Counted from the first letter of the stretch, positions 1 through 64,000 are shown. The stretch: 64,000 nucleotides of DNA from a virus (IMGVR_UViG_3300014204_000130:32001-96000); one strand, 5' to 3'. The notes: generated by a model from the letters alone, not told the origin. Numbers and translations: made by a program.

Positions 1-653
1 TTCAGTCCAATGGTGGACGATTCCGTAGAAGTTCCAGAGAATAATTCTATATTGTTTGGGAAGATTAAAGAATCGGCGGCACGTTTTGGATCGAACATGA
101 AATTTTCTTGAAAATATGGAATTGCTTTTACCATTTCTTTACAGTTTGAATACATATTCTTCTTGGCTTGTTTCTCTGTAATTGAAATGATCATAATTGC
201 AATCTTTGATTCGGCAGATAACTTGAAATACAACTGTGGTTGTTTCAAACATGATAAAATGTATGCATTCCAAATCAATCCAAGTGACATAAAGAATGAT
301 TTGCCCCAGCCGATGCTACCCTTGAGTATTGTTTCTCTTATTTCAGATTTAAGATCATGAACTGCACAAAAATCATTTTTAAGCGTTACATACATTGTTT
401 GTGCAACACCAATTCCAGTTGATTGATTTTTTCCACAATAATAAGGATCTTCTAGGAATTGCAATGGAGTAACTGGATCATATTTAAAAGGATTCAGCGT
501 TTCCAACAGATCATCATAAATGTCACTAAACACTTCCGTCAATAATTCTTGATTATTTTGATGTAAAGTAAATATCTTTTTGATTTGTTCATTCTGGTTA
601 TTCTTTAAGAAGTCGTTGAACTTCTGTGTTATTTCTGCTTTCGTTAAAAACAT
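1..653 (-). CDS. terL: Terminase large subunit, N-terminal part (runs off the left edge)
   Basis: Manually translated from ATG at 653: MFLTKAEITQ...PLQFLEDPYYCG...ETILKGSIGWGKSFF...IAIMIISITEKQAKK. Walker A GSIGWGKS plus FLEDPYY-type motif of large-phage terminases; open to position 1; not in the ORF track. Confidence 0.8.
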   Translation of the reverse strand, partial: MFLTKAEITQKFNDFLKNNQNEQIKKIFTLHQNNQELLTEVFSDIYDDLLETLNPFKYDPVTPLQFLEDPYYCGKNQSTGIGVAQTMYVTLKNDFCAVHDLKSEIRETILKGSIGWGKSFFMSLGLIWNAYILSCLKQPQLYFKLSAESKIAIMIISITEKQAKKNMYSNCKEMVKAIPYFQENFMFDPKRAADSLIFPNNIELFSGTSTESSTIGL

Positions 654-694
654 AGAATTTCATTCCCCGTTGAAAAAATAAATTTTAAAAACTA

Positions 695-723
695 TTGACT
701 ATCATCTAGCAACAGAGTATACT
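695..723 (+). promoter_or_regulatory. sigma70-type promoter
   Basis: TTGACT-N17-TATACT upstream of the GGAGG RBS of ORF 796. Confidence 0.7.
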
Positions 724-795
724 ATTGGTCCCGTTGAAATTTAATCAACGTTTGATGATTTGTAATCAGAATAACACATTGGAGGTTAATTTGAA

Positions 796-1263
796 ATGGA
801 TGAAGTTTTAGATGTAATTGATTCAACTTTGAAAGATACAAATCCTAAACAATTTTTTGCGGATTCAAAACTACCACTCCACCTTTGGCCGGAAACTGCA
901 ACAATTCTCGGAGCATTGGGATTGCTTGATGGTGCTAACAAATATGGTCGGGCAAATTTCCGGGCTGTGGGTGCCAGAGCTTCAACCTATGTCGATGCTT
1001 GTAAACGACATTTGAATGCATGGTTTGAAGGCGAAGATCACGACCCCGATTCAGGACTTCCACATTTCGCACATGCATTGGCATGTCTCGCAATCTTGGT
1101 TGATTCTCAAGTAAAGGGCAATCTCACAGATGACCGAATGTATAAAACCAATTACCGAGAATTCATCAACAAGATGACACCACATGTCAAACGTTTGAAA
1201 GAACTTCACAAGGATAAAAATCCAAAACATTACACGATTAAGGATTCCAACAATGGAAATTAA
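796..1263 (+). CDS. dATP/dGTP diphosphohydrolase domain protein (DUF5664-like)
   Basis: GANKYGRANFR...ACKRHLNAWFEGEDHDPDSGLPHFAHALACL signature. Confidence 0.85.
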   Translation: MDEVLDVIDSTLKDTNPKQFFADSKLPLHLWPETATILGALGLLDGANKYGRANFRAVGARASTYVDACKRHLNAWFEGEDHDPDSGLPHFAHALACLAILVDSQVKGNLTDDRMYKTNYREFINKMTPHVKRLKELHKDKNPKHYTIKDSNNGN

Positions 1264-1741
1264 AGTTGAGAAAATGACAACAAAGTATCTCTTGGATGAA
1301 GCATGTTCATTCACAGCCAATAAAGAAGTGCATCCAAACTTATTGAAAATGTATCGCGCAGAACATTCAGTCATTCGAACACAATTGTTTCTCGTGCGCA
1401 TGTATGACATCAAGACATTTGTTTCTGTGCATTTGGTTCGCCATACCCAAGGGATAAGCCATTTTGTCAAATCCAATAGGGAAGATCGTCCGGGACACAC
1501 AGGGGATCTTGGTAGAGATCAACCCGTGAACCATCTGATGTTTCTCAATGCACAGTCATTGATCAACTTGGCTCGAAAACGTTTATGTAATAAAGCCCAC
1601 AAAGAAACCATCGAAGTCATGAAACGTATAGTCGAAGAAGTTCGCAAGGTTGATCAAGATCTTGCAGTTTGTATGGTTCCGGATTGCATATATCGTGGGA
1701 AGTGCAATGAACCTGTAAGTTGCGGAGGATATTCAAAATGA
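1253..1741 (+). CDS. thyX: FAD-dependent thymidylate synthase ThyX-like (short form)
   Basis: EHSVIR, HLVRH...SNR and RKRLC motifs. Confidence 0.75.
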   Translation: MEIKVEKMTTKYLLDEACSFTANKEVHPNLLKMYRAEHSVIRTQLFLVRMYDIKTFVSVHLVRHTQGISHFVKSNREDRPGHTGDLGRDQPVNHLMFLNAQSLINLARKRLCNKAHKETIEVMKRIVEEVRKVDQDLAVCMVPDCIYRGKCNEPVSCGGYSK

Positions 1742-2274
1742 AATGTGATCCACTTATCGACATTGTAAATCAAATCAACAATGAAAAGATTCGGAACTTC
1801 ACAATTGCAGTTTTGAATGCGGTACCTGATGATTTCTGGACTATGAAAACCAGCACATCTGGAAAGTATCATCCTCCCGAATGCAATGAAGTTGGTGGAC
1901 TTATAATCCACATCCAAAGAGCTTGTTACTTTGGAAGTTTGTTTATAAATGCAAATGGATGGGATAGTCTGAATATTCGCGGAGACATTCTATTATCTGC
2001 ACTTCTATTACATGACATTGGAAAAAGAGAGAAATATGATAAGTATTGGGATTATGTAAATCATCCAATTTCGGGATCAAAAATGTTATATCCATACAAA
2101 CATATGCTCCCGGAAAAAGTATTTGTTATGATTTCCAATTGTGTTTTGCATCACATGAATCGCTTTGGGCCAAAGACAATCCAGAAGCCAGACAACAAAT
2201 ATAATATTTTGGAATTATATACATATCAGGCCGATTATCTTGCATCTCAGAAATCTCTCAAAATTGGCAATTGA
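1738..2274 (+). CDS. HD-domain phosphohydrolase
   Basis: STSGKYHP...GGLIIH...LLHDIGK...H...HHM...ADY. Confidence 0.85.
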   Translation: MKCDPLIDIVNQINNEKIRNFTIAVLNAVPDDFWTMKTSTSGKYHPPECNEVGGLIIHIQRACYFGSLFINANGWDSLNIRGDILLSALLLHDIGKREKYDKYWDYVNHPISGSKMLYPYKHMLPEKVFVMISNCVLHHMNRFGPKTIQKPDNKYNILELYTYQADYLASQKSLKIGN

Positions 2275-2485
2275 TTATGGGAAGAAATTCTGATTTAAGT
2301 TGGTTTGCATCTGAATTAAGAGCAAAATTTGGAACTAGAATGTTTACAACTATTGAAGTCCAAATTAAATTCTACTTGGCTCCACATATGACATGTGGAA
2401 GAATGCAAACATTACTTGAAAAAGGATATGTTGTTTTGGTACAATCTGGAGAACCAAAAAAATTTCATATCTGGAGAATGAAAAC

Positions 2486-2764
2486 ATGGTCCTTGAAACT
2501 CTCGATCCCATAGACGATGAAACATATATTCGTTCTTGGGAAAAAATGTATCGCGATATCTTTGGAAATCTAATCGATAAGCAGGAGTCTACAATGATTT
2601 GTCCAAGTTGTTTAAGTAATACAACCGATCCAAAATTTGAACACATGAAAATGAAAACCATTACGAATACTGGAAAGTATGTTTGTAGTCTTTGCAACAA
2701 AGTTATCTTGGTTGTGAAAGATTCAGATGGTAAATTTGTTCAGAAAGAACGCATTACAGAATAG
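2486..2764 (+). CDS. Small zinc-ribbon protein
   Basis: CPSC...CSLC pair; packed in the operon. Confidence 0.5.
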   Translation: MVLETLDPIDDETYIRSWEKMYRDIFGNLIDKQESTMICPSCLSNTTDPKFEHMKMKTITNTGKYVCSLCNKVILVVKDSDGKFVQKERITE

Positions 2765-2775
2765 AGGAGTTTGAG

Positions 2776-3216
2776 ATGTTTTGTGAACTTACGGATTCAG
2801 AATTGGTTATTGAAAAAATTCACGATTACATTAAAGATCCATCATATGCAACCGATGGAAGTGTTGGTATTGATATCTATTGTCCGAAAACCGTTGTGTT
2901 TCTACCCGGAAGAACAACCATTGTTCCATTGGGAATCAAATGTAAATTTCCCAAAACACTTTGGGGAAAACTGGAAGCCAAAAGTGGATTGGCCGTAAAA
3001 AACGGATTGGATTTCTACGCCGGAGTCATTGACAGTGACTATCGACATGAGATTTGCGCGGTTCTTATATCACATGGGGAACAGCCATTCACGATAGAGA
3101 AGGGTCAGAAGATCATTCAGATGGTGATGATGCCAGTTATCAAGCCTCGTCTAACAATTGGACAAATCGACGACCCGACTACAAGGTTTGGAGGATTTGG
3201 TAGCACCGGGAAATAA
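2776..3216 (+). CDS. dut: Trimeric dUTPase
   Basis: GIDI, KSGLA, GVIDSDYR, KIIQ and RFGGFGSTG motifs. Confidence 0.95.
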   Translation: MFCELTDSELVIEKIHDYIKDPSYATDGSVGIDIYCPKTVVFLPGRTTIVPLGIKCKFPKTLWGKLEAKSGLAVKNGLDFYAGVIDSDYRHEICAVLISHGEQPFTIEKGQKIIQMVMMPVIKPRLTIGQIDDPTTRFGGFGSTGK

Positions 3217-3523: not shown

Positions 3524-5698
3524 ATGAAATTTTATCGAAATGAAATTAAACTCGGGAAAGAAAAGAAAGTTCTCATCACTTGCAATCACCATGAAAACAA
3601 TGAAGCAAAGATTGTAAAAGAAATTGGGAATTTCCATCACATCCATGTCATCGACCGTTCCGGCAGTATGCAAGGTTCTATTGCCGAACTCATTGAAGAT
3701 GTAATTGCAACATTTTCATTGATGGGACCAAATGATATTGTATCTGTCCTTTGGTTTTCATCCGAAAATCAACAGGGTGTTATTTTGAAAGGTGCGAAGA
3801 ATGATCCATCCTTGAAAGAAGTTCTTCGCAAATATAAATCCACCGTTGGAATGACCTGCTTTTCACAACCGATGGAAATGGTGAAATCCATCATTGATGA
3901 ACTCTCTCCAATGTGTTCGAATATCGTGGTAAATTTCTTCACGGATGGTATGCCTGTAGTTTCTTGGGGATCAACCGAAGAATTCAAACGGACACACGCT
4001 ATTGTCGAATCGTTTTCCCACAAGATCATATCCATGAATACCATCGGATATGGCCAATACTATTCTCAGCAATTCTTACGGGATCTGGCCGGATTGACGC
4101 AGTATGGACAATTTGTACATGCTTCGAATATCCGGGATTATCAGAAAATTTTCGATACGAACTACCAGATTGTCAAAGAAAACATTCTGGACAAAGTTGA
4201 AATTGAAGCACCAGGAATTATAATTTATCTTAATCGGAAAACAACCAAATGTTCTGGAGCTACTGCCAAACTTGAATTGACTTCATTGGATAACAACAAG
4301 AATCAATTCTTCATCCTAATGAATATGGATACAACGTGTCTTATCAACGGTGAAAAGATCGAATCCAGTTCCATTTTAAACAAAGCTTCAGATGCAACCA
4401 TCCAGAACTTCTATTATGCCCTTGCTTATAATATGTATTATGATGGTACTCGTTCTGAAGCTCTGGAAGTTATTGTGAAAAATATCGGAAATGGATATCT
4501 TGCAGATCGACAACTTTCTGCCTGGACATTCGATGAAGTTTCCGATTATGAATCGATCTTGTTCCAAAGAACAATCAATCCAGAATCTCGGAAGAATGAC
4601 ACTCCATGCAAATCAAATTATCTTCCGAAAGACAATGCCTTTTGTTTCATGGATATGATGCTCTTACTTTCCAGAGATGGAGCATTATATCTTCCATATC
4701 ATTCAGAATCGGAAGATTACGAACGAATCGGAAAGAAAGCAGAATATGTTGAATTTGGATTCCATCGGGACAATTCCAAAATTCCAAGTGCCTCTTTCTC
4801 CAATGTTGTATTCACCAAAGATCGTTGCAATATCGGATTGAAATTTCAGATCGCTGGATATGTTGATATCAAACCCGAACATTCCAAAAACATTTCCAAA
4901 ATTGATTGCTCTATCTTCCGAACACATAATCTGATTCTCGACGGATATCCAAATTTGAAATCCATTGTTGTTTGTATGTCTTCCAAACTTTACAACAAAC
5001 TTCTCACCAAGAAAGTCGATGTTGTATATCTGGAAGATGGAGACGGTGAAGATACTTCGGTGATTTGCAAAATCAATCTTTGTTCTATTCCGGTTATCAA
5101 CAAGAAAATGTCCGAAGGAAATACCGGAAGTTCGATTTTACATCTAATCGAAGAACAAATTGAACATGAAACAAATATCAAAGTTATCGGTTCTCTGATT
5201 GAACAACTTGGAAAATCAAAAGCCAAGAAGTTTTCGGAATATACGACCGAGGAAAGTCTTTTGTTGGACAGATATGGAATCGACAAGTCGGGCGTATATC
5301 GTGGTATCGGATTGAGTCAAAAGAAAAATGATGCATGTGACTACTACATCTCAAAGAACGTGGAATTCTCCTTACAGGGATTCAAAAAGATTCCGTCTGT
5401 CAATGAATATCTCAAACGAGTCGCGGCCAAGAAAGATATGAAAGGATGTATCACACTCATTCATGAGGCGTATGAAAAATTCATCAAACTTCCTTTGGCA
5501 CAACTTGAAACTCAATTGATCAATGAGCAAGATCTTCTCCGGGATGTAAAGTATGAATTGTCGATCATCAAAATGTCATTGATTCTTACTGGATCTTGGA
5601 TTCCAGATTTCAAGAAGAATGACAATGGTGAATTCATTTATACCGATTCATTACACACCGCTGAAATGTGTATCTCGGAAGAAAAACAATACTTCTAA
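3524..5698 (+). CDS. Large vWA-domain protein
   Basis: MIDAS motif VIDRSGSM, conserved Thr, FFTDG; 724 aa. Confidence 0.8.
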   Translation: MKFYRNEIKLGKEKKVLITCNHHENNEAKIVKEIGNFHHIHVIDRSGSMQGSIAELIEDVIATFSLMGPNDIVSVLWFSSENQQGVILKGAKNDPSLKEVLRKYKSTVGMTCFSQPMEMVKSIIDELSPMCSNIVVNFFTDGMPVVSWGSTEEFKRTHAIVESFSHKIISMNTIGYGQYYSQQFLRDLAGLTQYGQFVHASNIRDYQKIFDTNYQIVKENILDKVEIEAPGIIIYLNRKTTKCSGATAKLELTSLDNNKNQFFILMNMDTTCLINGEKIESSSILNKASDATIQNFYYALAYNMYYDGTRSEALEVIVKNIGNGYLADRQLSAWTFDEVSDYESILFQRTINPESRKNDTPCKSNYLPKDNAFCFMDMMLLLSRDGALYLPYHSESEDYERIGKKAEYVEFGFHRDNSKIPSASFSNVVFTKDRCNIGLKFQIAGYVDIKPEHSKNISKIDCSIFRTHNLILDGYPNLKSIVVCMSSKLYNKLLTKKVDVVYLEDGDGEDTSVICKINLCSIPVINKKMSEGNTGSSILHLIEEQIEHETNIKVIGSLIEQLGKSKAKKFSEYTTEESLLLDRYGIDKSGVYRGIGLSQKKNDACDYYISKNVEFSLQGFKKIPSVNEYLKRVAAKKDMKGCITLIHEAYEKFIKLPLAQLETQLINEQDLLRDVKYELSIIKMSLILTGSWIPDFKKNDNGEFIYTDSLHTAEMCISEEKQYF

Positions 5699-8223: not shown

Positions 8224-9783
8224 ATGAGTAAAAAGAAACGACATGTACAAATTGGACAGGTTTGGAAGCATTGTGCAACATCCAACATGTATTTGATCGA
8301 GAAATTTACAAGCGATTCCAGTAGTGAAAAGACAATGGTGATATACAAATCGCTGAAAGACAATCGGCATTGGAATCGTCTTTTGGAAGAATTCCTTTCT
8401 CCGGGAAGATTTGAATATTATGGAGAGTATACGACAGATGCCAGTCGCATTGAAAAAGAACTTGGAATTTCTTTGGAAGAACAAAAGATATTGAAACTTC
8501 ACGCCGAAAACAAAGATTTACATGAACGTCTTCAAAAATCTAGTAAACTTAGTGTTGATCAATACAAACTAAATCTTGAATTGCGGAATCAAATTCAAAA
8601 ACTTGAGCACCCATTGAACTCGGAGAAGTTAGTTCCGGAACCAATTTGGGGAGAAATCCCGACTCCAAAATTCGATTCTTCCGTGTTATCTCCGGGAGAA
8701 CCTGAAAAAGTTAAGGACGAAGAAATTCAAAGATGGAAAGTTGAAAATACCAGATTAAATACCCGGCTTGAACATTTTAAAAAGGCATATCGAGAGAAAC
8801 ATGAACATTTAAAAATGTTATATGGTGAACGAAATAATCTTGAAGAGTCCAACAAAAGACTCTCCGATGAAGTTCGGAAATTGCGAGAAGAATGCAAAAA
8901 CAAAGCAAGTGTGATACATTTGGAGAAAACTTCCAAACAAGTTGCAATGGATAATTCAATTGCATTCGATGCCGTATTGAATGCAAAGATTACAAAGTTG
9001 GAAAAGGAATTGCAAGATGTAAATTGTAAACTGGATAATTCCAAAATAATGTTACATGATGAACGCGATAAAGTTCTGGGATTTCAGAAAGAATGTAGGA
9101 TCAAAGAGAATCTCATAAGCATTAAAGATGTAAAATTCCAAGAATTGGAAGCTAAGTACAAAGAACTTGAATCCTCTGCAAATCTGACAATTGCCGCTTT
9201 GAACCATACCGTCGATGAATTGAAACGCGAGAATTTCGAATGGATTCGAAACCATGACGGATATTTGGAACATACTCTCATTAAGGATAATAAAATTGCA
9301 GAGTTGGAAAAGGAATTGCAGAAAGTTACATCGGAAAAAGTAACTGCTGAAAAAGATTGCCAGTCGTTGCAGTTGAAAATGAGTAAATTGTGTGAAGAAA
9401 ATGGTATTTTGAAAACTCAAATTCTTCGACAAGAATCCTGTTCTAACAAAATGAATAATGAACAGACATCGACAATCGGAAAACAACGTGAACAAATTCA
9501 TGCATTGCAAATGAAAATAAATTCGTTGGAAAATGTTAAGAACTCTGACCTGATCAAACATCTTGATAACAGCATTGCAAAGTTGCAGATTGAGGTTGAA
9601 CGGCAAGAGAAAGAAGTCGAACGTTTGAAAACTGAAATCTCTCTGTTGCAAGCATACAAGTTCGGAAAGAAATTGCCGAAAGAAATCGAATTCAAAATAC
9701 AATCTCTGGAAGGAACCATCGACCGATTGAATTCTCGGATAAAAGGCATTCAAAATTTTGTAGGTCAAAGTAAGGAAGAATAA
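8224..9783 (+). CDS. DUF1653-like N-terminal domain plus long coiled coil
   Basis: WKH...Y...EKTMVIYKSL...WNRLLEEFL followed by ~400 aa of heptad-rich sequence. Confidence 0.65.
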   Translation: MSKKKRHVQIGQVWKHCATSNMYLIEKFTSDSSSEKTMVIYKSLKDNRHWNRLLEEFLSPGRFEYYGEYTTDASRIEKELGISLEEQKILKLHAENKDLHERLQKSSKLSVDQYKLNLELRNQIQKLEHPLNSEKLVPEPIWGEIPTPKFDSSVLSPGEPEKVKDEEIQRWKVENTRLNTRLEHFKKAYREKHEHLKMLYGERNNLEESNKRLSDEVRKLREECKNKASVIHLEKTSKQVAMDNSIAFDAVLNAKITKLEKELQDVNCKLDNSKIMLHDERDKVLGFQKECRIKENLISIKDVKFQELEAKYKELESSANLTIAALNHTVDELKRENFEWIRNHDGYLEHTLIKDNKIAELEKELQKVTSEKVTAEKDCQSLQLKMSKLCEENGILKTQILRQESCSNKMNNEQTSTIGKQREQIHALQMKINSLENVKNSDLIKHLDNSIAKLQIEVERQEKEVERLKTEISLLQAYKFGKKLPKEIEFKIQSLEGTIDRLNSRIKGIQNFVGQSKEE

Positions 9784-10196: not shown

Positions 10197-10776
10197 GTTT
10201 AAAAATTTTGTCCAAGATTGGAATTTCATTATGAGCGTAAGAACTGTTGGTGACATGCAGAGAATCGTAGATCGAAAAGATCAAATGATTACAAAACTTG
10301 AAAAACGAATACTGGAGAAGAACAAAGAGATAACACAATTGATTAAAACGGCAACATCTTATGAACATTGCATTAAGAAGTTGGAATTGAAGATGCTTTC
10401 CGTTGAGAAAAAAAAGAATTCGACAAATTTGGAGACTGATAATGAAAGACATAATTGTAAAGATTAAACATGCACTTGACAAGAAATATGTATTCGATCA
10501 ACCAGGAGAAGTAACACGAGATCCATTGAAAGATATTAAAATTCTTTTACAAGAAATAAATACAATTCAAATTCGGGAAGCTCTTGTTGCAAAACATCGG
10601 GATGAGATTCAGAAATTATTTGATGAGAATTGTAAACATTCCGACAGACAATATAAAAGAATAATAGAATTGTATGAGAAGATACTGGAATGGAAATGTA
10701 GAATGGGGTCTACAGATTTTTATAGTAGCAAAGACATTGTGAAAGAAATGACATCTTTGTTGGAAGAAATTAAGAA

Positions 10777-12042: not shown

Positions 12043-12360
12043 ATGATAACTGAAGAAGAAAATCCCTTTCCTCCGGATGACCCTGGAGAACCGATTGTCC
12101 AGCAAAAGACGGAAACTCCTTCGAAAGAATTTCCTACGGAGTGCATGTATCGGTTGAAAGCCTTGGCAAAAGAGAAGGGATACAAGTCGGGATATGTCGC
12201 CGTGAATTTCCGGAAGATCTTTAATCGATGGCCGACATATGCCGAAGGTGGGAATCCTCCTCGGAGGCAGAGATCTTGGATGAATTACGTTTGGGGAAAT
12301 GAAGATTCCGATGATGATCCCATGGGATTCGGACATCCCGACGATTTTGGAGATAATTGA
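12043..12360 (+). CDS. Hypothetical protein with a helical domain paralogous to ORF 10777
   Basis: AKEKGYKSGYVAVNFRKIFNRWP. Confidence 0.5.
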   Translation: MITEEENPFPPDDPGEPIVQQKTETPSKEFPTECMYRLKALAKEKGYKSGYVAVNFRKIFNRWPTYAEGGNPPRRQRSWMNYVWGNEDSDDDPMGFGHPDDFGDN

Positions 12361-12458: not shown

Positions 12459-13517
12459 ATGATTGAAATGGAAACCAAAATAAATAAAAATTGTGGGATG
12501 CGGAAACCACATAATCTAAAAGGATGCATCGAAAGAACTGGTTTAAGTTTTAAAGAATTTGCCATTAAACTTGGAATTCAAACATCCTATTTAATGTCTC
12601 TGTTAAATCGGGTTGTTTCAATGCCGAAAAGTACCAAGAAACGAGCATATGCAATTATACGTGAAATTGAAAGTAATTGCCCTTTGCCAAGTAATGAAAT
12701 TGTAAGGAGTGAGATCATGAAGGATTTGAACATTGAAAATAAACCCGATTTGACAATTGAGGAGATTTCCAAATATCCTAGCAATGTTACCACTGAAAAT
12801 GTACATCCTTTGAAAATAGAAATAATGAAAACTGGAATTTCATTTTCAAAGATAGCCAGAGAAATTGGTATTGGCGTTGGAAAATTATCCAACATGTTAA
12901 ATTTATCTGGAACTAGTCGAATGACTCCTGAATATGAAAATCTAATTCGTGAATTTTTGGAGTTGTCCAAATCAGTTAAAGTAATCACCATAGAAAGTCC
13001 TATAATTAAAAAAATTACATTCGAACCAAGTCCTTTGAAAACAGCATTGGTAAATTTGATCAAAGAATGTAAACAAGAGCGAGATCAAATGAAAAATCTG
13101 AAGAATTCAAATCAGAATACTTCTTTGGAGATTGATAATTTACATATTCAAATTGAGAAATTAAATGATGAATTAAATTGTAATATTGAGAAATTAAATG
13201 ATTCCGATTTGGATAGATTAAATTTGTTGAATGTAATTAATAATATGGTTGGAAAATGTCCAGTTTGTGGAGGTTCGCTGGCATGTAATTCGACAGGTGA
13301 TAGTTTTACTTGTCTTGAACCCGAATGTTTCTTTGCCGAACGAACTTTAACTTGGAAGCAATTATGTATTATCCGACAATACGAATTAGAAGAGTTCCCA
13401 GATTCATTTGACGATGAGTTGGATCTTTCGGATGTCGTTGACAATATCGATCCTCCATATGAGAGTTTGTTATTCGGGATCGATGGAAATATCTTGAACC
13501 CTCGTAAACCCGCATGA
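12459..13517 (+). CDS. Tandem XRE-type HTH regulator with coiled coil and Zn ribbon
   Basis: GLSFKEFAIKLGIQTSYLMSLLN and GISFSKIAREIGIGVGKLSNMLN; CPVC...CLEPEC. Confidence 0.7.
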   Translation: MIEMETKINKNCGMRKPHNLKGCIERTGLSFKEFAIKLGIQTSYLMSLLNRVVSMPKSTKKRAYAIIREIESNCPLPSNEIVRSEIMKDLNIENKPDLTIEEISKYPSNVTTENVHPLKIEIMKTGISFSKIAREIGIGVGKLSNMLNLSGTSRMTPEYENLIREFLELSKSVKVITIESPIIKKITFEPSPLKTALVNLIKECKQERDQMKNLKNSNQNTSLEIDNLHIQIEKLNDELNCNIEKLNDSDLDRLNLLNVINNMVGKCPVCGGSLACNSTGDSFTCLEPECFFAERTLTWKQLCIIRQYELEEFPDSFDDELDLSDVVDNIDPPYESLLFGIDGNILNPRKPA

Positions 13518-13578: not shown

Positions 13579-14803
13579 TAACACCCTGTCAGAAAATATT
13601 TTGAAATTCCAATGAACTCCTGAGTGGTACGTATGGAAAATTACTTTACGTATAAATTAAATCTTTTGTTAGACGAAGGAATTGTAAATGATATTCGTAA
13701 TAAATGGAAACTCTGGCGTAATAATGGGACAATTGACAGAAGTGAAATTTGAAAATGAAGATATTGCTTTCCAAATTCCAATAACTGAAGAACGTAAATT
13801 TGTTGAGAATGTCATTTATCATATGAATATTGGAAATGTTCGACATGTTGTTCTTGAAGATGGAAAATTTATTCTCCCGAAAGGAATGTTGAAAAATGTA
13901 TATTTCTGGGGAAAGGAATATGAATAAAGAGGAAATTTCAATTCTACTGTATATAATTGCAATAATGAACTGGTCGAAATATCAGATGAAAGAACTTGGG
14001 AAAGTACAACGGATAGACAGTCTTTTGTTGGACAGTTTGTGAAAAAATTACAATGAATGGTATTGAAGATGGATCACATATAGATATTACAACTTTGGAC
14101 GTATATATCTGTCCCAAATGTGGAACTATGAAATCAGGGAAGGAGAAGTAGAAAAATATGAACTGTTGTCGATGTAATTTCCGAGAAGCAGAAGAACATG
14201 CGCCATATTGTCATATCTGCGATAAATTTTACAGTAAGGAAGAAGTGAATCGTATTCTGAAATACGTGGAGGACAATAAATACACAAATTGTAAAATGGT
14301 ACAGCAAGGAGACTTACAGGTAAAACTGTCTCTCGCCAAAAGTTATAAGGAGTTGGAAGAACATGATCGAGAATTAGAAAGAACTGCCAGTTTAACCTTC
14401 CGAAGATTGCCGGGAGATAAACGATTAATTTTCATGATAGTGAAGAATGATAACCGGGAAACCGTCGAATAATTTCGTCCAACAAAAGACAGTTTGTGAA
14501 AAAATCACAATGTATAAGGAATCTGACATGATAACCCTGAAACCCCTCCCGTATAAATTGGCAAAAAGAATATTCCTTTCAGACCCCGGAGGAATGTTCC
14601 ATCAGAGAGGAGTAAGATTGAACTTCGGTATAAAATATGGAATACAAGGAACGGACATATCGATCATCAATATTCTAAGAGATGTGAATTACGACCATTA
14701 CAAATTTGCATTCTATTGGTATCCGGGAAAGGAAATTAATTTCCGGGATATTATGCTTAGAAATAAATTGGAGACGCTGATAAATGGAGGAGTAGAATTT
14801 TCG

Positions 14804-15546
14804 TAATATTTTTTGACAGTCTTTTAAAAGACGGAATTTCCCAGTAGGACCGTAAACTGTGAATTTGGAATTCCGTCTTTTGTTGGACAGAATTTTGAAA
14901 GTTGAGAATTTAACATGTCACTTTGTCCAAGATGTAAAGTAAATGAGAAACAAATATTTAAGACAGGTAAAGTCGGTGCATATTGTAGAGAATGCCAGAA
15001 ACATTACCATGATAGGTATTATTATGGTGAAGGTGGTAAACCTGTGAAGATTCCGAAACCCCCGAAACTTCCAAGAATCCCGAAAACAATTTGTCCAAGA
15101 TGTAAAGTAAATGAGAAACATAAATTTCCAAATTGCATGGCTGCTTATTGTTTGGTATGCGTCCGAGAAGTGGATAAGGAAACACATAAACGAAGAATGT
15201 TGGAAGATCCCGTCGAGATAAAACGAAAACATCACTTGGCCGTTCAAAGATATCAGAGGAAGACAGATCCTGAAAGATTTCGTCGATATAGAAAGATGGG
15301 TATGAAGGAAATAGACACTTCATTGACATTGGCATTCGTAATGGATTGGTTTAATGGTGAATGTCAGGAATGCTTTAATATCTGTGAATTCGGAGGAGAG
15401 TATAAACCAACAATTGATTATATAGTTCCGTTGAAGTCTGGAGGACAACATGTGAAGGAAAACGTAAGGCTGTTGTGTAGAAGTTGTATGCAAATAAAAT
15501 GGAGAAATTCTATTTCATAATATTTTTGGACAGTCTTTTAAAAGAC
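14804..15546 (+). mobile_element. HNH gene cassette bounded by 29-nt direct repeats
   Basis: TAATATTTTT(T/G)GACAGTCTTTTAAAAGAC at 14804-14832 and 15518-15546. Confidence 0.6.
14915..15520 (+). CDS. HNH endonuclease-like protein, probably catalytically degenerate
   Basis: Duplicated CPRCKVNEK fingers; TIDYIVPLKSGGQH...NVRLLCRSCM (His->Tyr and Asn->Met relative to DHIIP..GG.H...N...C..CN). Confidence 0.75.
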   Translation: MSLCPRCKVNEKQIFKTGKVGAYCRECQKHYHDRYYYGEGGKPVKIPKPPKLPRIPKTICPRCKVNEKHKFPNCMAAYCLVCVREVDKETHKRRMLEDPVEIKRKHHLAVQRYQRKTDPERFRRYRKMGMKEIDTSLTLAFVMDWFNGECQECFNICEFGGEYKPTIDYIVPLKSGGQHVKENVRLLCRSCMQIKWRNSIS

Positions 15547-15550: not shown

Positions 15551-15587
15551 ACCCCTCTTGTCTGTATGGAAAGAGGGGTTTCTTTTT
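15551..15587 (+). terminator. Rho-independent terminator
   Basis: ACCCCTCTT/AAGAGGGGT stem followed by TTCTTTTT. Confidence 0.7.
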
Positions 15588-17927: not shown

Positions 17928-18126
17928 ATTGCATTTTGCAATGTCCACCAAAAGATGCACAACGGTTTATCATTTCCGTTGTCATCTTGCATCTTTCTTC
18001 AGTTAAAAATGATAAAGATCATTTGCAGGCCGTTTCAACGACGGTGACTGCAACGGCTTCAATGCCGTGAAATGATATGTATCCGGTTCGTTTCAGAACT
18101 GGAAAATTCGTAAAGGAGGTGTCATC

Positions 18127-19530: not shown

Positions 19531-19645
19531 TCCTCTCCCATGCATCCACGATCTTGTGGAAGGAATGCATTCACGTCGAGTCGTGACATGGGAATTGCAA
19601 ATTCTGTCTTTTGTTGGACAGAAAATTAAACGTAGGAGAATCTAT

Positions 19646-24039: not shown

Positions 24040-24137
24040 CCACTCGCGCCGCCAGACAAAGGGGAACACACATCGGGAACCCGGCGTCCAATATTGGACG
24101 CCAAATTAACATCCCTTAAATGGGAAGGAGTATTACC

Positions 24138-29201: not shown

Positions 29202-29264
29202 GAACACACGTCGGAACCAAAGGTCCAATATTGGACAAATATTAAAAATATAAGGAGAATTTAT

Positions 29265-33965: not shown

Positions 33966-33982
33966 TTGTCCAACAAAAGACA

Positions 33983-40222: not shown

Positions 40223-40223
40223 T

Positions 40224-50788: not shown

Positions 50789-52444
50789 TCAGTTCGCTTC
50801 TGCCAACGCTTTTTCTATGTCTGAATCATCCATAGCATCAGGGTTTACAGCCGTTGTGTTTACCAACGTTGGGACATCCTCAATACCGATTTCGTAATTT
50901 ATGTCGGATTCTTTTCGAACTCGATCAGGAAATTTGTCCAACGTTGGACGGTCCACTACTTCGACGATTGGATTGGTATTTTTTACGGTTTTCGTTTCGA
51001 TATTCTTATAATCTCCCGCTTCTTTTGCGAATTCAAATTCATCTTCAATCCAATTCATCTTGTAGAATTCTGGAATAATATATGTTATCAATCGAACTCC
51101 AGAACGTACTTTAAACTCACGAGCTGTCAATCGACCTTCAATAGTATTTCCATCGGTTCCTTTATGAATATGCAATTTATCTGAATCGCTTTGTTCTATT
51201 GCAATCAACAAATCTGCAATCGAAGAAGCTTTATCGGAAGATGCACCTGTTTCGTCGGAAATCTTCTTTGCTCCCCGATTTGTCTGTTGAGCACTGAATA
51301 TTACACACTTATGTTTTCTTGCAATTGATTTCATTTTTGTATACAAATGAGCTTGAGATTTCCAATCTTGTTCTACAACATTCTTCAATCCAGAAATCAT
51401 ATCTCCGATGTAATCCACAACCACTAGATCAGGTTTGAATGGATTATCGGAAATTATTTTATCCACAACTGCCGGAGAACAATTTTCAGGAACCCCATAA
51501 ATCATGAGATCTGTATCATTGTTTCCATAATCTTTAATCTTATCCCGCCAACTTTGTAACTTTGCAGGACTCTCAACGATATGAGCCAAAGAGAATTCTT
51601 CGGTATGTTTGAACTTTGTAATATGTGAATCCATACGAAATGCATACTCATTGGCAGACATCTCAATTGTGATTATGATGACCTTAATTCCTTTAACTTT
51701 ACCCTTTTGTTCAGGTTTGTGAAATGCTCTTGAATATACTCCACAATAATTACTGAGTGCAACTCCCATCAAAAACATCGACTTGCCCATATTTGTTCTT
51801 GCTTGAAACATGGCAAATGAACCGGGTTTCAATGGAGGGTTGAAATTGTCAAAGTTCTTGAATCCGGTCCAAACTACTCCAGCTTGTTCCGGATTATTCT
51901 TCAGTTCTTGTAAGTATAATATGCGCTGCTCAATGTTTCCTTTTAATGAAACCAATTCAATATTAGAATCATAATTTATGGATTTCTTGATAATATCAAT
52001 TTTCAATTCTAAGTCTTGAACGGATTCCTTAGATGTTTTAACACCCACTTCCGCAACAGTTTGTGCCATCGCTTTAACAATTTTTCTATTGTGGGAATGC
52101 TCTTTTAATTGTTGAGCATATGAGATACAATCAATATCTGCAATCTTACTTTCTTTAATTTCCAACAAAGATGCTTTAATCTTTACCTTGTCTTCATCTC
52201 CTATTTCTGGAAGCCCTATTGCAAAATTATAGAAGCCAGAGAACGACACAAGGTTATTAGTTTTTAAATATTCGTCGTTGAGGATATTGTAAATTTGTCT
52301 ATAATTTGGGAATGCAAAATCTTCAACTTCGACCAGTCCACGAATGATTTCAAATGTAGTTACACCATATTTGAAAATAGCAAACAGTAAAGAAGATTCA
52401 ACATGTTTGTTTTCAGTTTTTCTATTATCTCTTTGTTCGGACAT
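50789..52444 (-). CDS. dnaB: DnaB-like replicative helicase
   Basis: ARTNMGKS, ITIEMS, VVVDYI, SAQQTNR, KVR. Confidence 0.9.
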   Translation of the reverse strand: MSEQRDNRKTENKHVESSLLFAIFKYGVTTFEIIRGLVEVEDFAFPNYRQIYNILNDEYLKTNNLVSFSGFYNFAIGLPEIGDEDKVKIKASLLEIKESKIADIDCISYAQQLKEHSHNRKIVKAMAQTVAEVGVKTSKESVQDLELKIDIIKKSINYDSNIELVSLKGNIEQRILYLQELKNNPEQAGVVWTGFKNFDNFNPPLKPGSFAMFQARTNMGKSMFLMGVALSNYCGVYSRAFHKPEQKGKVKGIKVIIITIEMSANEYAFRMDSHITKFKHTEEFSLAHIVESPAKLQSWRDKIKDYGNNDTDLMIYGVPENCSPAVVDKIISDNPFKPDLVVVDYIGDMISGLKNVVEQDWKSQAHLYTKMKSIARKHKCVIFSAQQTNRGAKKISDETGASSDKASSIADLLIAIEQSDSDKLHIHKGTDGNTIEGRLTAREFKVRSGVRLITYIIPEFYKMNWIEDEFEFAKEAGDYKNIETKTVKNTNPIVEVVDRPTLDKFPDRVRKESDINYEIGIEDVPTLVNTTAVNPDAMDDSDIEKALAEAN

Positions 52445-56559: not shown

Positions 56560-56916
56560 TCATTCTTCCACTTCGATTTCATCTTCGGATTCGTCCAACG
56601 TTGGACTGTCATCTTCTTCGATCTCGATCTTTTTCACAACTTCAAAATCCGACATTTCCCGAGGACGTTTTCCAAAGCGATAGGGAAACAATGGACATGT
56701 CGGAACTGTACATTTTTCCACTTCGGAATATTGATATCCCGCGCAATCCAAACACTTTGCCCGGATTGCCTTGATGGGAGTTTTCAGATCAATCCCAGAT
56801 GCTATTAGATTTTCCCGCTGTTCCGCTCCCGCCTTCCGGGTGAGTTGGGCCTTCCGCTGCATTTCAATGCGCTGTTCTGGTGTAATTGATGCTAAGCCTT
56901 TTGGTTTCTGATTCAT
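56560..56916 (-). CDS. Conserved small Zn-binding phage protein
   Basis: TPIKAIRAKCLDC...EVEKC...CPLFPYRFG. Confidence 0.65.
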   Translation of the reverse strand: MNQKPKGLASITPEQRIEMQRKAQLTRKAGAEQRENLIASGIDLKTPIKAIRAKCLDCAGYQYSEVEKCTVPTCPLFPYRFGKRPREMSDFEVVKKIEIEEDDSPTLDESEDEIEVEE

Positions 56917-59991: not shown

Positions 59992-60960
59992 TTATTTTCC
60001 ATACTCCAAGTTGATTACTTTGAATGAAAGACGTTCACCCATGATAGTTTCTTCTTCGATAGGCCGAAACACTAATCCTTCCCGTGGTTTATCGTTTGGA
60101 TAATTCCCCTTCGCCATATCCTGTAACCATTTGTTGGATACATCTTCAGGAAATGTTCCAACAAGATCAACAACCACCATTGGAAGTTGATTTAATCTGC
60201 AAAACTCCGTCAATTCCAGATAGCCGCAGTATTTGTGCTCTTCAATACTGTAAAGATTGAATACTCGCAAATCTTTCTCAGGGAGTCCCATCGGATTACC
60301 CTGAATACTTGGTCCAACCATTTCAAATTGAATAGCATATCCTTCAGGAAGCTTGTTAACAAGATCATACTTTCTTGCAAGACACCAAATCAAATTATGT
60401 GGGGTGTCTTTCATTGAAAGATTTCTTGAACAACAAAACATTTCCCCTTTGTATTTTCCAATGGTTCCTGAACTCCCATCGGCCTTCACAGATGCATAGT
60501 ACGATTTACCTTTCAATGCATCTACAAGATGAGAAGCCGTTTGGAAGTTTGGTTCGTCTGTCTTTGGCATGAAACCGGGGAAGTTACCAAGTGCATCGCC
60601 AGCAATACTTGGATCAATTGGTTTCTCATACTTGATGACTTTCATTGCATCACCAATATCATCACCAATTGTCATATCACAACCAACATTCGGCATGATG
60701 AGAACTTCCGACGCAACACCTTTGAACTTGCACATGGTTACACGGAACTTTCGTTTCCTCATGAATTCAAACCGTTCAAGTTCTGGAACAATTGCATCTG
60801 GAAGATATACTTCAACATAGTCACCAATTTGCATTTCTTTGCTGACAACACCATGCCATTTCCCACCCTGACCGCAAACTACTTCAGCTTGAACGATCTT
60901 GTCTGCATCTTTAATAGGATTGATGTTGATGATCTTACCGATGAATGCTAAACCTTTCAT
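59992..60960 (-). CDS. ATP-dependent RNA ligase (Rnl2/DRB0094-like)
   Basis: N-terminal PI..ADKI OB-like module; PKTDE, KADGSS, CSRN, REGLVFR, SFKVIN. Confidence 0.88.
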   Translation of the reverse strand: MKGLAFIGKIININPIKDADKIVQAEVVCGQGGKWHGVVSKEMQIGDYVEVYLPDAIVPELERFEFMRKRKFRVTMCKFKGVASEVLIMPNVGCDMTIGDDIGDAMKVIKYEKPIDPSIAGDALGNFPGFMPKTDEPNFQTASHLVDALKGKSYYASVKADGSSGTIGKYKGEMFCCSRNLSMKDTPHNLIWCLARKYDLVNKLPEGYAIQFEMVGPSIQGNPMGLPEKDLRVFNLYSIEEHKYCGYLELTEFCRLNQLPMVVVDLVGTFPEDVSNKWLQDMAKGNYPNDKPREGLVFRPIEEETIMGERLSFKVINLEYGK

Positions 60961-61529
60961 GATTCTTCTTCCTCTTTCTTTTTTGGATATAGCCAATCGA
61001 ATCGCCAAATCTGTTCACATTTCATTTCAAATGCAATCTTTGCACAAACTACTTCATATTTCACACGATAATAATTCTTGCAAAGCCATTCAGTTACTTC
61101 TTGATTTGCTTTATTTTTAAACTTTGGATAATTACATGAGAAGATCATCATAAGAACATACAAACTATTCTTCGTATCTTTCAAGTAATTGTATAATAAT
61201 TCTCGATCATTGCATGAGAAAACATATTTTACAAGTTCAAATGGATTGACATCTTTCTGTGTATCTTCCGATAGTTTTGTAATTTTGTATTTCTTTGTCG
61301 ATGCGCGTTTACCTTTCAAAAGTTTGTAATCGTGAATTACAATTGTAAGATTAACTCCACTTTCAATAAGAAGATCAATGTCTTTCTTCTTCAAATTCAA
61401 TTCATCGGAATATGCAACAAGGTTTTTGTCTTTGGTCATGAAGTTCTTATTGATACTTGCGGAGGTTATCTCAGAGATTACGAAATCGTTCTTCTCAAGT
61501 TCATATTCTCCGTAAATGAAATGGATCAT
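60957..61529 (-). CDS. Possible clamp-loader accessory subunit
   Basis: IHFIYGE.E...NPFELV pattern; near the RFC gene; weak evidence. Confidence 0.35.
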   Translation of the reverse strand: MIHFIYGEYELEKNDFVISEITSASINKNFMTKDKNLVAYSDELNLKKKDIDLLIESGVNLTIVIHDYKLLKGKRASTKKYKITKLSEDTQKDVNPFELVKYVFSCNDRELLYNYLKDTKNSLYVLMMIFSCNYPKFKNKANQEVTEWLCKNYYRVKYEVVCAKIAFEMKCEQIWRFDWLYPKKKEEEES

Positions 61530-62828
61530 GAGAATTCCAGATGTGTTTTTATTGCTTTCTCTTGTTCAATTGATAGATCCATTGGAATTTGAAGCAATTT
61601 CAATCTTCGTTTGAGTTCTGTAACCTCACGATAATACGGTGTACAAATTTGACCACCTTGAGTTCCACATCCAAGTTGACAAGCATGACCATTGTTCGGA
61701 AATCCATTTGGTATGAACTGTGGGCATTCACCACATTTCTTATCAGTTGTTGAAATGTAACAACTACAATACGCCATACCATCCATGAATTCTGGTCTGA
61801 GGTCATTGAAAACAAGATCTTTTTTCACTCTATTTGTAGTCATATTATCTGTCCATCGACCATCTTTCAAAGAGATTCCACAATTTAATACATCCTACCA
61901 TTAAGATACTACCTCCAAGTATCAAAGTAAGCATAGCAGCAATCATGCAAAATGCTGCGAGTTGTGGCATGATGGAATTTAAACATGTTGATATCAATAT
62001 CATCGATAACGTAAATCCCAACAATCCAACTCCAATAATTATCAACAGTAAGTTTGGCAAATATCTTTTATATTTTTCAATCATTTTCATCTCCACGGTT
62101 TAATAATCAAAATTTCTGGAAGTTGGCCTTTGAAAATTCTATTTGAAAAATGTTCTTCCCATTCCAAATCCCATTCCAAACATGCTTGATGTTTGTCCGA
62201 CATAACCATATCTGCATTGCATCTCGGACAATGTATTCTTCGGTCCTGCCGACTGAATCTTTGAACAACATAATATTCATGCCCAAAGATCCAACATTTA
62301 AACTTGTTCCAAAATTGATTCATTCTTGTTCCTCATTATCGAATAAAAAATCATCTGCAAGTTTTATTCGAAGATAATCGGTAGATGTTTTTTCTTGAAC
62401 ATTTACTTCTATACACTGTTTCAAAGATTTTATCAATTTCAATGCATCCTGTTTAAATCGTTGATGTTTGCTTTTTAACTCATCCAATTCTATTTGGATT
62501 TTTTCTTTATCAATTGGAATATATGGTCTGGAAGTAAATCCACATTCACATGGATCTTCCCAACATTCTGGACATGCTGATTTTATTCCAATTGACATAT
62601 TACCAAAACCAAACCGTCTTAACAACTTGAACAAGAACTACAACAAATCCAACAGAAAATAATGTTGATATCAAAACATATGCAGCATATATGGCCGCAA
62701 GTATACATCCATCCTTCCAAGTATAGACAGTCTCCCGTGGTGTGAATCCACCCTGATTGATCTCCATTTTGGAACCTCCTTTTCGATGCTTTGATCTTAA
62801 CAGATATGCTAGAGAAACGCAAGGACTT

Positions 62829-64000
62829 TTAAGAAAATTCTTTCATGACCGCTTTTTCAATTTCTGCTTCAATTTTTTGCATTTCTTTGTCATTTAATGT
62901 CTCTACGACCGTCTGGATTACTTCTTTCTTCAATAGGAATTGCTCGTGTATCTTTTCCTCTACGGTATCGTTAACGATGAAGGAATAGACATGAACATCA
63001 TTCTCTTGGCCTGTTCGATACAATCGACCGATTCGTTGTTCTTCTGTGGTTGGCTTAAATGGTTTTTCCCACTGCACCATGTATCTACAGAACTGGATAT
63101 TATGTCCGAAGTTAACCTTATCCGTGCATAATAAGAATCGTCTATCAGAGTTCTTGAATTGCTGGATAACTGTAAGAGCATCTTCTTTTTCATCTCCGGT
63201 GATCTTGAAACATTTCTGTCCAATATTGGACAAATATTCTTCCAACATTCGGATTGTACATTTATAAAATGAAAACACAACAATTTTTTCATCCGTCTGT
63301 TCAAGTATCTCTTGGAACTTTTCAAGTTTTGGATTTTCTTTGTATTTTCCTCTTGAAGTATCACATAGAAATTGTCGTGCAGCATGATAACCAGCCGATG
63401 CATTTCCCTTATGTTCAAGTTTTACATCATCGTAACATTTCAACATTTCTTTCGAAGGATCGATAAATATGTCTGTTGGGTATAGATCAACTTTCAACCG
63501 TAATTTCTTCCGGATGATCATCGGCTTGATTAACTTGTGCAAATAATCATCATTCTTAAATCCTTTGGCTTTCGATTCAGTTTTGACGACATATCGATTC
63601 ATCATTCTACTCCAGAATCGAAACGATACATCTTCATACTTTATGAAGTTTGTCTGGAAGAATTTCTGACCTCCAAGTATATGTCCACCATCGATAAGTT
63701 TGAATATCGGATACAAATCAAATAATTGATTTTCAACTGGAGTTCCCGACATTGGTACTCGATATAATGGTTTCCAGAAATTGATTACTAAGTCGAAGAA
63801 ATTCTGACTTCTGGTTGCAAATAGAAAATTCTTCATATTATGGAACTCATCCACAATCAACATATCGGGATTCAACTTTTGTATTTCTTTATAATCGAAA
63901 TTGCATTTGTCGTAGTTTATGACAATCATCTCGATCATCGGATTTACAACGAATTGATGATACTTTTCAATCCGTTTCTTTTTGTTGTCAGTTTTGTTGA
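62829..64000 (-). CDS. SNF2-family helicase (5' end beyond the window)
   Basis: IVDEFH, SGTPVEN, KIVVFS, GHN, EQRIGRLYRTGQ; frame open to 64000. Confidence 0.9.
   Translation of the reverse strand, partial: NKTDNKKKRIEKYHQFVVNPMIEMIVINYDKCNFDYKEIQKLNPDMLIVDEFHNMKNFLFATRSQNFFDLVINFWKPLYRVPMSGTPVENQLFDLYPIFKLIDGGHILGGQKFFQTNFIKYEDVSFRFWSRMMNRYVVKTESKAKGFKNDDYLHKLIKPMIIRKKLRLKVDLYPTDIFIDPSKEMLKCYDDVKLEHKGNASAGYHAARQFLCDTSRGKYKENPKLEKFQEILEQTDEKIVVFSFYKCTIRMLEEYLSNIGQKCFKITGDEKEDALTVIQQFKNSDRRFLLCTDKVNFGHNIQFCRYMVQWEKPFKPTTEEQRIGRLYRTGQENDVHVYSFIVNDTVEEKIHEQFLLKKEVIQTVVETLNDKEMQKIEAEIEKAVMKEFS

Follow-up and report, generated by a model that had tools for sequence, protein, structure and literature searches.

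A 14-bp palindrome of the form GTCY-N6-RGAC (GTCYNNNNNNRGAC) recurs throughout the genome of G000, a novel and uncultured tailed phage, and forms an array that is genuine, under strong selection and recognised as double-stranded DNA. The phage is represented by an IMG/VR virus record of 108,145 bp (IMGVR_UViG_3300014204_000130; CheckV completeness estimate 88%), and the window is the 64,000-nucleotide (nt) stretch that spans bases 32001–96000 of this record, to which all coordinates refer unless genome positions are stated. Judged from the sequence, we consider it an evenly balanced prospect that the sites are docking points for one two-headed, sequence-specific protein, most likely phage-encoded, that would act both at gene junctions and chromosome-wide.

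The window holds 29 exact copies, against 1.68 ± 1.32 expected and a largest value of 6 in 100 dinucleotide shuffles, in line with an initial annotation that had reported at least 28 copies where about one was expected by chance. The whole 108-kb record holds 42 copies, spread from 2.1 to 103 kb with a mean spacing of about one per 2.6 kb, versus a single match for the reversed control pattern. The observed spacing is strict: when the distance between half-sites is scanned from 0 to 14, N6 yields 42 copies and N7 yields 7, the remaining spacings yield 0–5, and everted arrangements yield 0–7. The symmetrised logo reads yy-GTC-Y-W-w-y / r-w-W-R-GAC-rr, with position 5 exclusively A or T. Copies with one mismatch, nearly always at the outermost G or C, are also in excess (40 vs 24.3 ± 4.2 expected), so that the palindrome family amounts to about 55–60 sites. 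All N+1 and single-mismatch variants that the initial annotation had picked out by eye are present, namely the N7 forms at 3149–3163 (GTCTAACAATTGGAC, inside the dUTPase gene), 22858–22872 and 42167–42181 (GTCCAATTTTTGGAC, inside the SbcC-like gene), and the one-mismatch copies at 10210–10223 and 35093–35106 (both GTCCAAGATTGGAA), 15588–15601 (GTCCAACGTTGGAA), 16157–16170 (GTCTTTTAAAAGAT), 17943–17956 (GTCCACCAAAAGAT) and 38905–38918 (GTCCATCAAAAGAT). A further one-mismatch copy, ATCTTTTGTTAGAC, lies at 13661–13674, 13 nt before the ATG at 13688.

The two halves of a site are observed to vary independently. Half-sites come in three types (GTCCAA, GTCTTTT and GTCTAA) that are freely combined, and the resulting forms of the palindrome include GTCCAATATTGGAC and GTCCAACAAAAGAC. 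When sites are classed by the pyrimidine at position 4 of each half, CC, CT and TT account for 13, 27 and 2 sites versus 16.7, 19.6 and 5.7 expected, and the two TT sites are duplicates of one another.

The genes that carry the palindrome provide a stringent measure of selection. Shuffling synonymous codons within each gene predicts 3.55 ± 1.77 in-gene copies, with a largest value of 9, so that the 26 observed represent an approximately 7-fold enrichment. In-gene copies use all three reading frames and occur in genes of either strand; together with the codon shuffle, this rejects the possibility that the palindrome is an artefact of a protein motif. Conserved residues of terL (SSTIGL) and of the SbcC-like gene (TSIVGL) are encoded with codons that create the site, while in the SNF2 gene, a head protein gene and others the amino acids of G000 depart from those of three relatives exactly at the residues encoded by the site. 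Codon choice and amino-acid departures therefore indicate that selection acts on the DNA word. The placement of copies within core genes, as first described, is borne out: exact sites lie at 5–18 in terL (GTCCAATGGTGGAC), 5256–5269 in the vWA gene (GTCTTTTGTTGGAC), 37247–37260 in the ATP-dependent DNA ligase gene, 41912–41925 and 42967–42980 in the SbcC-like gene (the latter over the conserved IVGL motif), 50936–50949 in the DnaB-like helicase gene and 63218–63231 in the SNF2-type helicase gene. Others are found at 8847–8860 in a 519-aa gene (GTCCAACAAAAGAC), 38127–38140 in a 176-aa gene and 56593–56606 in a 118-aa gene, and within genes at 12097–12110 (GTCCAGCAAAAGAC), 21730–21743 (GTCTTTTCTTGGAC) and 25148–25161 (GTCCATTCCAAGAC). 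The over-representation of a 14-bp word counts against a restriction, methylation or base-modification target, and the record yielded nothing more specific than a generic class I methyltransferase. Enrichments of TGC-N10-GCA and similar words with three-base arms, seen in G000 and in two of the relatives described below (G001 and G003), have spacings that fit a codon-phase effect and were not taken as real motifs.

A second set of observations bears on how the palindrome is read. Outside full sites, half-site words show no excess (GTCCAA 38 vs 47 expected under a Markov-3 model, TTGGAC 38 vs 39, GTCTTT 36 vs 40), and half-site hexamers and heptamers as a whole lie at or below expectation. Only the pair of halves therefore counts, and a Chi-like or monomer recognition word is rejected. 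Across the 42 sites, Watson–Crick complementarity between halves, scored at four inner and four flank positions, never rises above that expected from column composition, and at position 4 it lies below it (15 vs 22.3). As many as 27 of the 42 sites are heterotypic, and by-eye reading places heterotypic sites seven each way relative to the sense strand; in RNA, one of the two orientations of such a site gives C-A mismatches. The clearest case is the mixed site GTCTTTTGTTGGAC at 14020–14033 (followed by AGTTTGTGAAAAAATTACA-ATG) and its reverse complement GTCCAACAAAAGAC at 14477–14490, each of which precedes the same 20-nt flank AGTTTGTGAAAAAATYACA-ATG in spite of the opposite orientations of the two sites. 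An RNA hairpin or a cruciform is rejected for the family overall on the absence of covariation, the heterotypic sites and the use of both orientations. One helical turn (11 bp between centres) separates the GTC triplet from GAC, as is usual for a helix-turn-helix (HTH) dimer, for example on the 14-bp operators of phage 434. The sequence evidence favours palindromes that are double-stranded DNA sites read in two halves by a paired or two-headed protein. Half-sites, covariation and orientation all bear out this part of the initial annotation, which had proposed a genome-wide site for a dimeric phage protein and had named a stoperator-like repressor, a parS- or matS-like organiser and a recombination site as possibilities.

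The positions of the sites relative to genes are likewise non-random. Non-coding DNA makes up 9.2% of the genome and yet holds 17 of the 42 copies (binomial p = 6e-8). Seven junction sites, all exact except for the N7 form, lie 26–38 nt before an ATG led by a Shine-Dalgarno sequence: 19606–19619 (26 nt; followed by AGAAAATTAAA, AGGAG and ATG), 21230–21243 (36 nt before the ATG at 21280), 22340–22353 (26 nt before 22380; flanks tct/aga), the N7 variant at 22858–22872 (27 nt before the ATG of the MoxR ATPase; flanks ttc/gaa), 24086–24099 (38 nt before 24138; flanks ggc/gcc), 28794–28807 (28 nt before 28836) and 29223–29236 (28 nt before 29265, the start of a paralogue of the 28836 gene). These seven share a plan in which the upstream stop codon is followed by a few bases, the site, aRAAATTAAA, AGGAG and the ATG. 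A different hairpin with a 9-bp stem, ATCATTCCC-N6-GGGAATGAT, occupies 16901–16947 in a placement like that of the junction palindromes, directly before the AAATTAA, Shine-Dalgarno sequence and ATG of the gene at 16948. Three exact sites abut intrinsic terminators (15533–15546, 33354–33367 and 33968–33981). The dense cluster at 14.0–16.2 kb that had been pointed out at the outset indeed contains 8 exact and 2 near copies: in addition to the sites at 14020 and 14477, exact copies are found at 14819–14832 (GTCTTTTAAAAGAC), 14875–14888 (GTCTTTTGTTGGAC, 26 nt before the ATG of an HNH endonuclease gene), 15533–15546 (GTCTTTTAAAAGAC), 15637–15650 and 15670–15683 (both GTCTAAGATTGGAC, the second 33 nt after the first) and 16071–16084 (GTCCAGCAAAAGAC), with the near copies at 15588 and 16157. 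A terminator predicted from sequence on the plus strand (15551–15588) lies between the 15533 site and the near copy at 15588.

A scan for sigma70 promoters found 52 promoter-like sites versus 46 expected, with zero tied to palindromes, and a sigma70 promoter element is rejected as an explanation of the sites, the distance from site to ATG being too short to accommodate both a -10 box and a leader. To read TGTGAAAAAAT, which follows the sites at 14020 and 14477, as an extended -10 element is speculative.

From this arrangement we infer binding by a protein, and with it a likely binder and an effect on transcription. The binder would be a dimer, or one polypeptide that carries two HTH domains, and is probably phage-encoded. 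Each head would read GTC plus Y-W on one half, with the GTC and GAC triplets presented on the same helical face. A protein bound at a junction would occupy the gap from the upstream stop codon to the next ribosome-binding site, or the DNA just ahead of a terminator, and from there may halt or modulate read-through transcription much as a stoperator or KorB does. The 8–10 sites at 14.0–16.2 kb would form a region of high occupancy, and the in-gene copies would extend control or coating to the whole chromosome.

The preferred candidate binder is an orphan protein of 352 aa with two XRE-like HTH repeats, encoded at 12459–13517 on the plus strand directly upstream of the cluster. The double-HTH architecture assigned to it at first reading is recovered as an XRE-type HTH pattern that repeats internally, at residues ~17–50 and 118–150 (42% identity, E 2e-6). 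Weak PHROG matches to 'transcriptional regulator' and Atlas leads to HTH_3 at residues 13–90 and 110–184 are found for the same protein, whose other features are a coiled coil, a Cys4 ribbon and an acidic tail. No homologue was found among 5.8 billion proteins, which matches the heterotypic form of the site being private to G000, and the excess of CT sites at position 4 fits a reader with two unequal heads. The other binders put forward in the initial annotation fare less well. No family support was found for the 'RHH' protein at 3310, and the supposedly degenerate HNH protein at 14915 proves to be a regular HNH endonuclease (Pfam E 1.2e-7). Since copies of a duplicated site unit lie on either side of it, it looks more like an inserted gene than a binder. 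The candidate binders are thus two, the 12459 protein and a ParB-like protein encoded outside the window.

Several points weigh against a two-headed regulator of this kind, or against the 12459 protein as its embodiment. The protein is tied to the sites by position and architecture alone. A six-frame search with Pfam HTH_3 returned no match, so that the HTH assignment is weak; the AlphaFold2 (AF2) model is poor (mean predicted local distance difference test score, pLDDT, 50), and its best fold match is not significant (E 0.5), the top-ranked rows being XRE/Cro-type regulators. No palindrome is found at the promoter of the 12459 gene itself, nor at the sigma70-like promoters at 695–723, 16302, 20899 and 28031, and classical promoter occlusion is thus not the mode of action. 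A simple repressor of early genes would not readily account for sites in late structural genes. Searches of the 88%-complete record found no Phage_integrase domain, serine recombinases not having been searched for, and no ParA-type (AAA_31) ATPase, which makes lysogenic silencing of the stoperator type unlikely. Finally, four junction sites have flanks that are complementary at 3/3 positions in differing letters (tct/aga twice, ttc/gaa and ggc/gcc) and are the most stably folded (-8 to -14 kcal/mol), which hints at an added structural role at these four.

Several known systems of dispersed phage and plasmid sites bear comparison with the array. Its closest published analogue is the 17-bp palindrome TGTTCGG-N3-CCGAACA of the Cluster O mycobacteriophages (Corndog and relatives), which occurs in 34 copies, 14 of them intergenic and about ten clearly within genes (PMC4351075). 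The Cluster O copies lie mostly away from promoters, insertions and deletions fall between them, and the phages are not temperate; the authors propose that they are bound by a dimeric protein, for a purpose that is unknown, and the phages encode a ParB-like protein, gp90, with no parA (PMC4351075). Similarly, G000 has dozens of genome-wide copies of one dyad word, ~40% of them intergenic and most of them off promoters, with an A/T-rich and variable centre, no orientation rule, insertions flanked by copies and a ParB-like protein without parA. The two arrays differ in that the Cluster O site has invariant arms (7-N3-7), whereas G000 conserves 4–5 bases per half and combines its half-types freely; the host phylum also differs. 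The Cluster O array is kept across five close relatives, while the relatives with which G000 was compared have 42–51% PolB identity and lack the motif.

The stoperators of Cluster A phages (L5 gp71; TipsytheTRex repressor) comprise 20–35 dispersed repressor sites, many in short intergenic gaps, at which elongation is halted, and one such repressor contacts DNA as a monomer, through two domains (PMC9283540, PMC6550527). Stoperators, however, are asymmetric 13-mers oriented with transcription, whereas the G000 sites are symmetric and have no orientation, and Cluster A phages are temperate and use an immunity repressor, unlike G000, which shows no integrase or ParA-type ATPase. In the KorB-OB (IncP plasmid RK2), Noc-NBS and ParB-parS systems, an HTH dimer with the ParB fold recognises dispersed 13–16-bp palindromes, which may coincide with a promoter or lie far from any, and the outcome is global silencing or organisation (PMC11790492). 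For silencing from a distance through dispersed palindromes, KorB-OB offers the best model of mechanism, although the CTP motif and the co-occurrence of protein and sites fail in G000. Like these systems, G000 encodes a ParB_N domain followed by an HTH; in contrast to them, its CTP motif is degenerate, a ParA- or KorA-like partner was not found, and relatives that bear the orthologue are without the array. The density of sites in G000 (1 per 2.6 kb) is also far higher than that of NBS sites, and its copies occur inside genes.

The ParB-like protein is accordingly the basis of a second explanation, in which the sites dock or load a partner-less ParB-like protein that coats, bridges or slides, and so organises or globally silences the DNA. 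We regard this as possible, though unlikely. The protein has 595 aa and is encoded at genome positions 98561–100348 (window-equivalent 66561–68348; locus L058:3561-5348). Its ParB_N domain scores 26.8 bits in a six-frame search and matches ParB chains of the PDB at E 1e-5, and it is followed by an HTH_ParB-like segment, LTGIFGYSRATVYSYVEMY, with Atlas feature scores of 0.95–0.96 and template modelling (TM) scores of 0.46–0.55 to the ParB/Spo0J/Noc clusters of the Atlas. An acidic and probably disordered extension of 280 residues forms the N-terminus. One exact and one near palindrome lie inside the protein's own gene, no ParA-type ATPase was found, the operators of the ParB family are palindromes of 13–16 bp (PMC11790492), and Cluster O, with its 34-copy palindrome, likewise has gp90 and no parA. 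Set against this, the CTP-pocket motif GERRxRA is degenerate, reading GFGRYDA in G000 (GFKRYEA, GLGRKMA and GAGRVTV in the orthologues), which makes clamp and sliding chemistry doubtful. Orthologues with 26–38% identity occur in G001, G002 and G003, and the recognition helix of G003 (SRSAVYQY) is close to that of G000 (SRATVYSY), yet neither the motif nor any other genome-wide palindrome is present in these phages, which counts against the ParB-like protein as the binder. No homologue was found in GenBank phages, in a single-protein scan of IMG/VR, or in G006, an HMO-2011-type record that bears the same core palindrome.

These relatives were identified by a profile search of IMG/VR with PolB homologues (42–51% identity), and G001, G002 and G003 were examined whole; two further PolB relatives, P0002 and P0003 (66–67% identity), lie outside the genome comparison. 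Each of G001–G003 has 2–3 chance copies of GTCY-N6-RGAC, and none was found to have a genome-wide palindrome of its own. Regional repeats were seen in two of them, nearly all intergenic: G001 (L036-L041) has 5 copies of CCCTGCATA-gaaa-TATGCAGGG at 69.7–75.1 kb, and G002 (L042-L048) has a dense cluster of ~40 copies of GATTGATTAATCAATC at 68–77 kb.

Outside these relatives, an exact scan of IMG/VR with GTCCAACGTTGGAC returned at least 119 stretches, of which 118 loci were counted, and 59 of the 118 loci among the matches listed hold 2–8 copies of the motif. As a control, the heterotypic 14-mer GTCCAACAAAAGAC was scanned for and matched 116 loci, with more than one copy in only 9, and the heterotypic form of the site is private to G000. 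The multi-copy loci (38–44% G+C) belong to HMO-2011-type marine podophages, as indicated by blastn matches to CRP-1, CRP-345 and HMO-2011. Among the matches listed, the HMO-2011-type loci (L075-L192) carry 3–8 copies of GTCCAA-YR-TTGGAC before successive small early genes, placed just upstream of the Shine-Dalgarno sequence and 15–24 nt before the ATG in 77 of the 94 cases that could be oriented. A second palindrome, GTTATATAAC, often lies ~35 nt further upstream. CRP-1 (L193, MK613343) has 5 copies at its early end, and HMO-2011 itself (L194, NC_021864) carries a changed core, GTCCG-N4-CGGAC, in the same places. No description of this early-gene palindrome was found in the literature searched. 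The HMO-2011-type sites thus share with G000 the core and the position just upstream of the ribosome-binding sites of successive genes; they differ in being confined to the early region and in having homotypic halves, whereas G000 adds the GTCTTTT and GTCTAA halves and has most copies in genes. The HMO-2011-type phages are unrelated to G000 at the protein level. A binder common to both was not found by blastp, phmmer or jackhmmer against 5259 open reading frames, and the only shared proteins are a GH108 lysin, an HNH protein, an SNF2 helicase and a methyltransferase.

A shared core without a shared regulator would be explained if the binder were a nucleoid-associated protein or global regulator of the host that is recruited by the phage, an explanation we consider improbable. 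In 151 genomes of Rhodobacterales, the host order of the CRP phages, which may not be that of G000, the core occurs 14 times versus 31 for the reversed control, and bacterial matches to GTCCAACGTTGGAC are single copies that are taxonomically scattered. A host regulon is therefore unsupported for that order and phage-encoded binders are likelier, a view that both the changed core of HMO-2011 and the private heterotypic form of G000 fit as products of phage-encoded, co-evolving binders.

A related array is found in the cultured Rhizobium phage RHph_TM16 (L438-L443, MN988459), whose TerL has 32% identity to that of G000 and in which 17 copies of TGCAA-N4-TTGCA (0.04 expected) are spread over 18.9–100 kb. 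Its extended form is GTGCAACATATTGCAC, and its half-site GTGCAA is one base from GTCCAA. RHph_TM16 resembles G000 in having a dispersed palindrome array with nearly the same half-site; unlike in G000, where the spacing of the GT(G/C)CAA hexamers is N2, in RHph_TM16 it is N4, and BLAST detects no proteins in common beyond TerL and a RecA-like one. In Vibrio phage PJ32, TGCAA-N4-TTGCA is limited to 6–8 weak copies, and no enrichment of TGCAATCGATTGCA was found in either PJ32 or RHph_TM16.

The placement upstream of ribosome-binding sites also raises the question of whether the palindrome is an RNA element, a short hairpin that sets the processing, stability or translation of the mRNA. The seven sites that lie 26–38 nt before Shine-Dalgarno-led starts and are followed by the A/U-rich stretch AAATTAAA, the low folding energies of the four junction sites with fully complementary flanks, the different hairpin in the same position before gene 16948, and the 15–24-nt placement of 77 of 94 HMO-2011-type sites among the matches listed would all suit such an element. 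Its hallmarks are nevertheless missing from the family. Covariation is absent over 42 sites, of which the 27 heterotypic ones would give C-A mismatches on one strand and occur in both orientations, and most copies lie in genes, in three frames and on either strand. At the first flank pair of the HMO-2011-type sites, read on the sense strand, A-C outnumbers G-U by 43 to 3 among the matches listed, the opposite of what an RNA stem would give. We hold an RNA element to be a poor prospect.

The remaining explanation, that the palindromes are recombination or homing sites for gene cassettes such as HNH genes and that their abundance reflects traffic, draws on the surroundings of two free-standing HNH genes on the plus strand, each of which is flanked on both sides by a duplicated palindrome-bearing unit. 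The first gene (14915–15520) is bracketed over 14806–15546 by the unit taatattttt[t/g]gaca-GTCTTTTAAAAGAC, whose left copy contains the site at 14819 and whose right copy contains the site at 15533, directly before a terminator. The second (33477–33965; PHROG E 2e-51) is bracketed over 33354–34012 by GTCCAACAAAAGAC plus the terminator CCCCACC-N8-GGTGGGG, the sites at 33354 and 33968 each standing directly before the terminator hairpin. From these sequences, both genes seem to have been inserted at palindrome units, or to reflect recombination between such units; the rightward block at 0.8–34 kb is private to G000, and in Cluster O insertions and deletions also lie between palindrome copies (PMC4351075). 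Recombination between dispersed repeats is, however, an expected by-product of any repeat family, the HNH genes at 44279–44800 and at genome positions 23579–24742 have no bracketing units, no integrase was found, and the 26 copies inside conserved core genes are left unexplained, all of which makes this reading very unlikely.

The genome in which the array resides is distant from GenBank phages. G000 has zero nucleotide-level matches to them and its PolB matches theirs at only ~25% identity, its TerL has ~32% identity to the TerL of Vibrio, Rhizobium and Agrobacterium siphophages, and a single-protein scan of IMG/VR for closer relatives gave zero matches. Its genes encode a family-B DNA polymerase (PolB), a DnaB-like helicase, an ATP-dependent ligase, SbcCD-like proteins, RecA and an SNF2 helicase, as well as a clamp-loader-like ATPase, a CCA-adding enzyme and a MoxR-vWA pair. 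Structural genes run leftward over genome positions 1–32.7 kb, a rightward block of small plus-strand genes, nearly all private to G000, occupies 0.8–34 kb of the window, and leftward replication genes follow. Sites are densest in the rightward accessory block (0.63 per kb), followed by the structural (0.37 per kb) and replication (0.22 per kb) blocks.

Features of the window that are independent of the array include a near-consensus promoter, TTGACT-N17-TATACT, at 695–723 on the plus strand, in the gap from which terL and the first rightward gene diverge, with no palindrome nearby. Downstream of it, a nucleotide-pool gene cluster (796–3216, plus strand) comprises the N-domain of a MazZ-like dATP/dGTP diphosphohydrolase (PF18909, E 2e-24), a dUTPase, a C-terminal fragment of ThyX and an HD-domain protein that is common to G001–G003. 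No PurZ (adenylosuccinate synthetase family) was found in the G000 record, and a 2-aminoadenine genome is therefore unsupported; another change to the nucleotide pool or bases of G000 is possible. A beta-solenoid protein (YdcK repeat / bactofilin-like) is encoded at 29642–30283 on the plus strand by about ten 18-nt tandem repeats, which explain the repeated 11-mer TGGGAATGCTC; the dispersed 11-mer GAGCATTCCCA was rejected as a DNA site, since it is the coding tandem repeat of this protein. At 39311–41153 on the minus strand, a PAPS-reductase-fold protein (PF01507, E 4e-24), private to G000, adjoins the SbcD-like and SbcC/SMC-like genes.

Similar arrays have been known in phages since the description of Cluster O in 2015. 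G000 adds palindromes that are forced into coding sequence at a cost in codons and amino acids, which would mean that the protein–DNA interaction spans the whole phage chromosome. A more ambitious picture, which we offer tentatively and do not think probable, is that of a virulent phage with a private 'chromatin' system, in which the orphan two-headed HTH protein or the degenerate ParB docks approximately every 2.6 kb and thereby switches or insulates transcription units genome-wide. G000 offers a compact test case, with two candidate binders and clear classes of junction, pre-terminator and in-gene sites, and the link to the early-gene palindromes of abundant marine phages, some of them cultured (CRP-1, CRP-345 and HMO-2011), makes the question open to experiment. 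If the interpretation is correct, the HMO-2011-type core and the RHph_TM16 half-site would point to a widespread and undescribed class of genome-wide regulators in phages.

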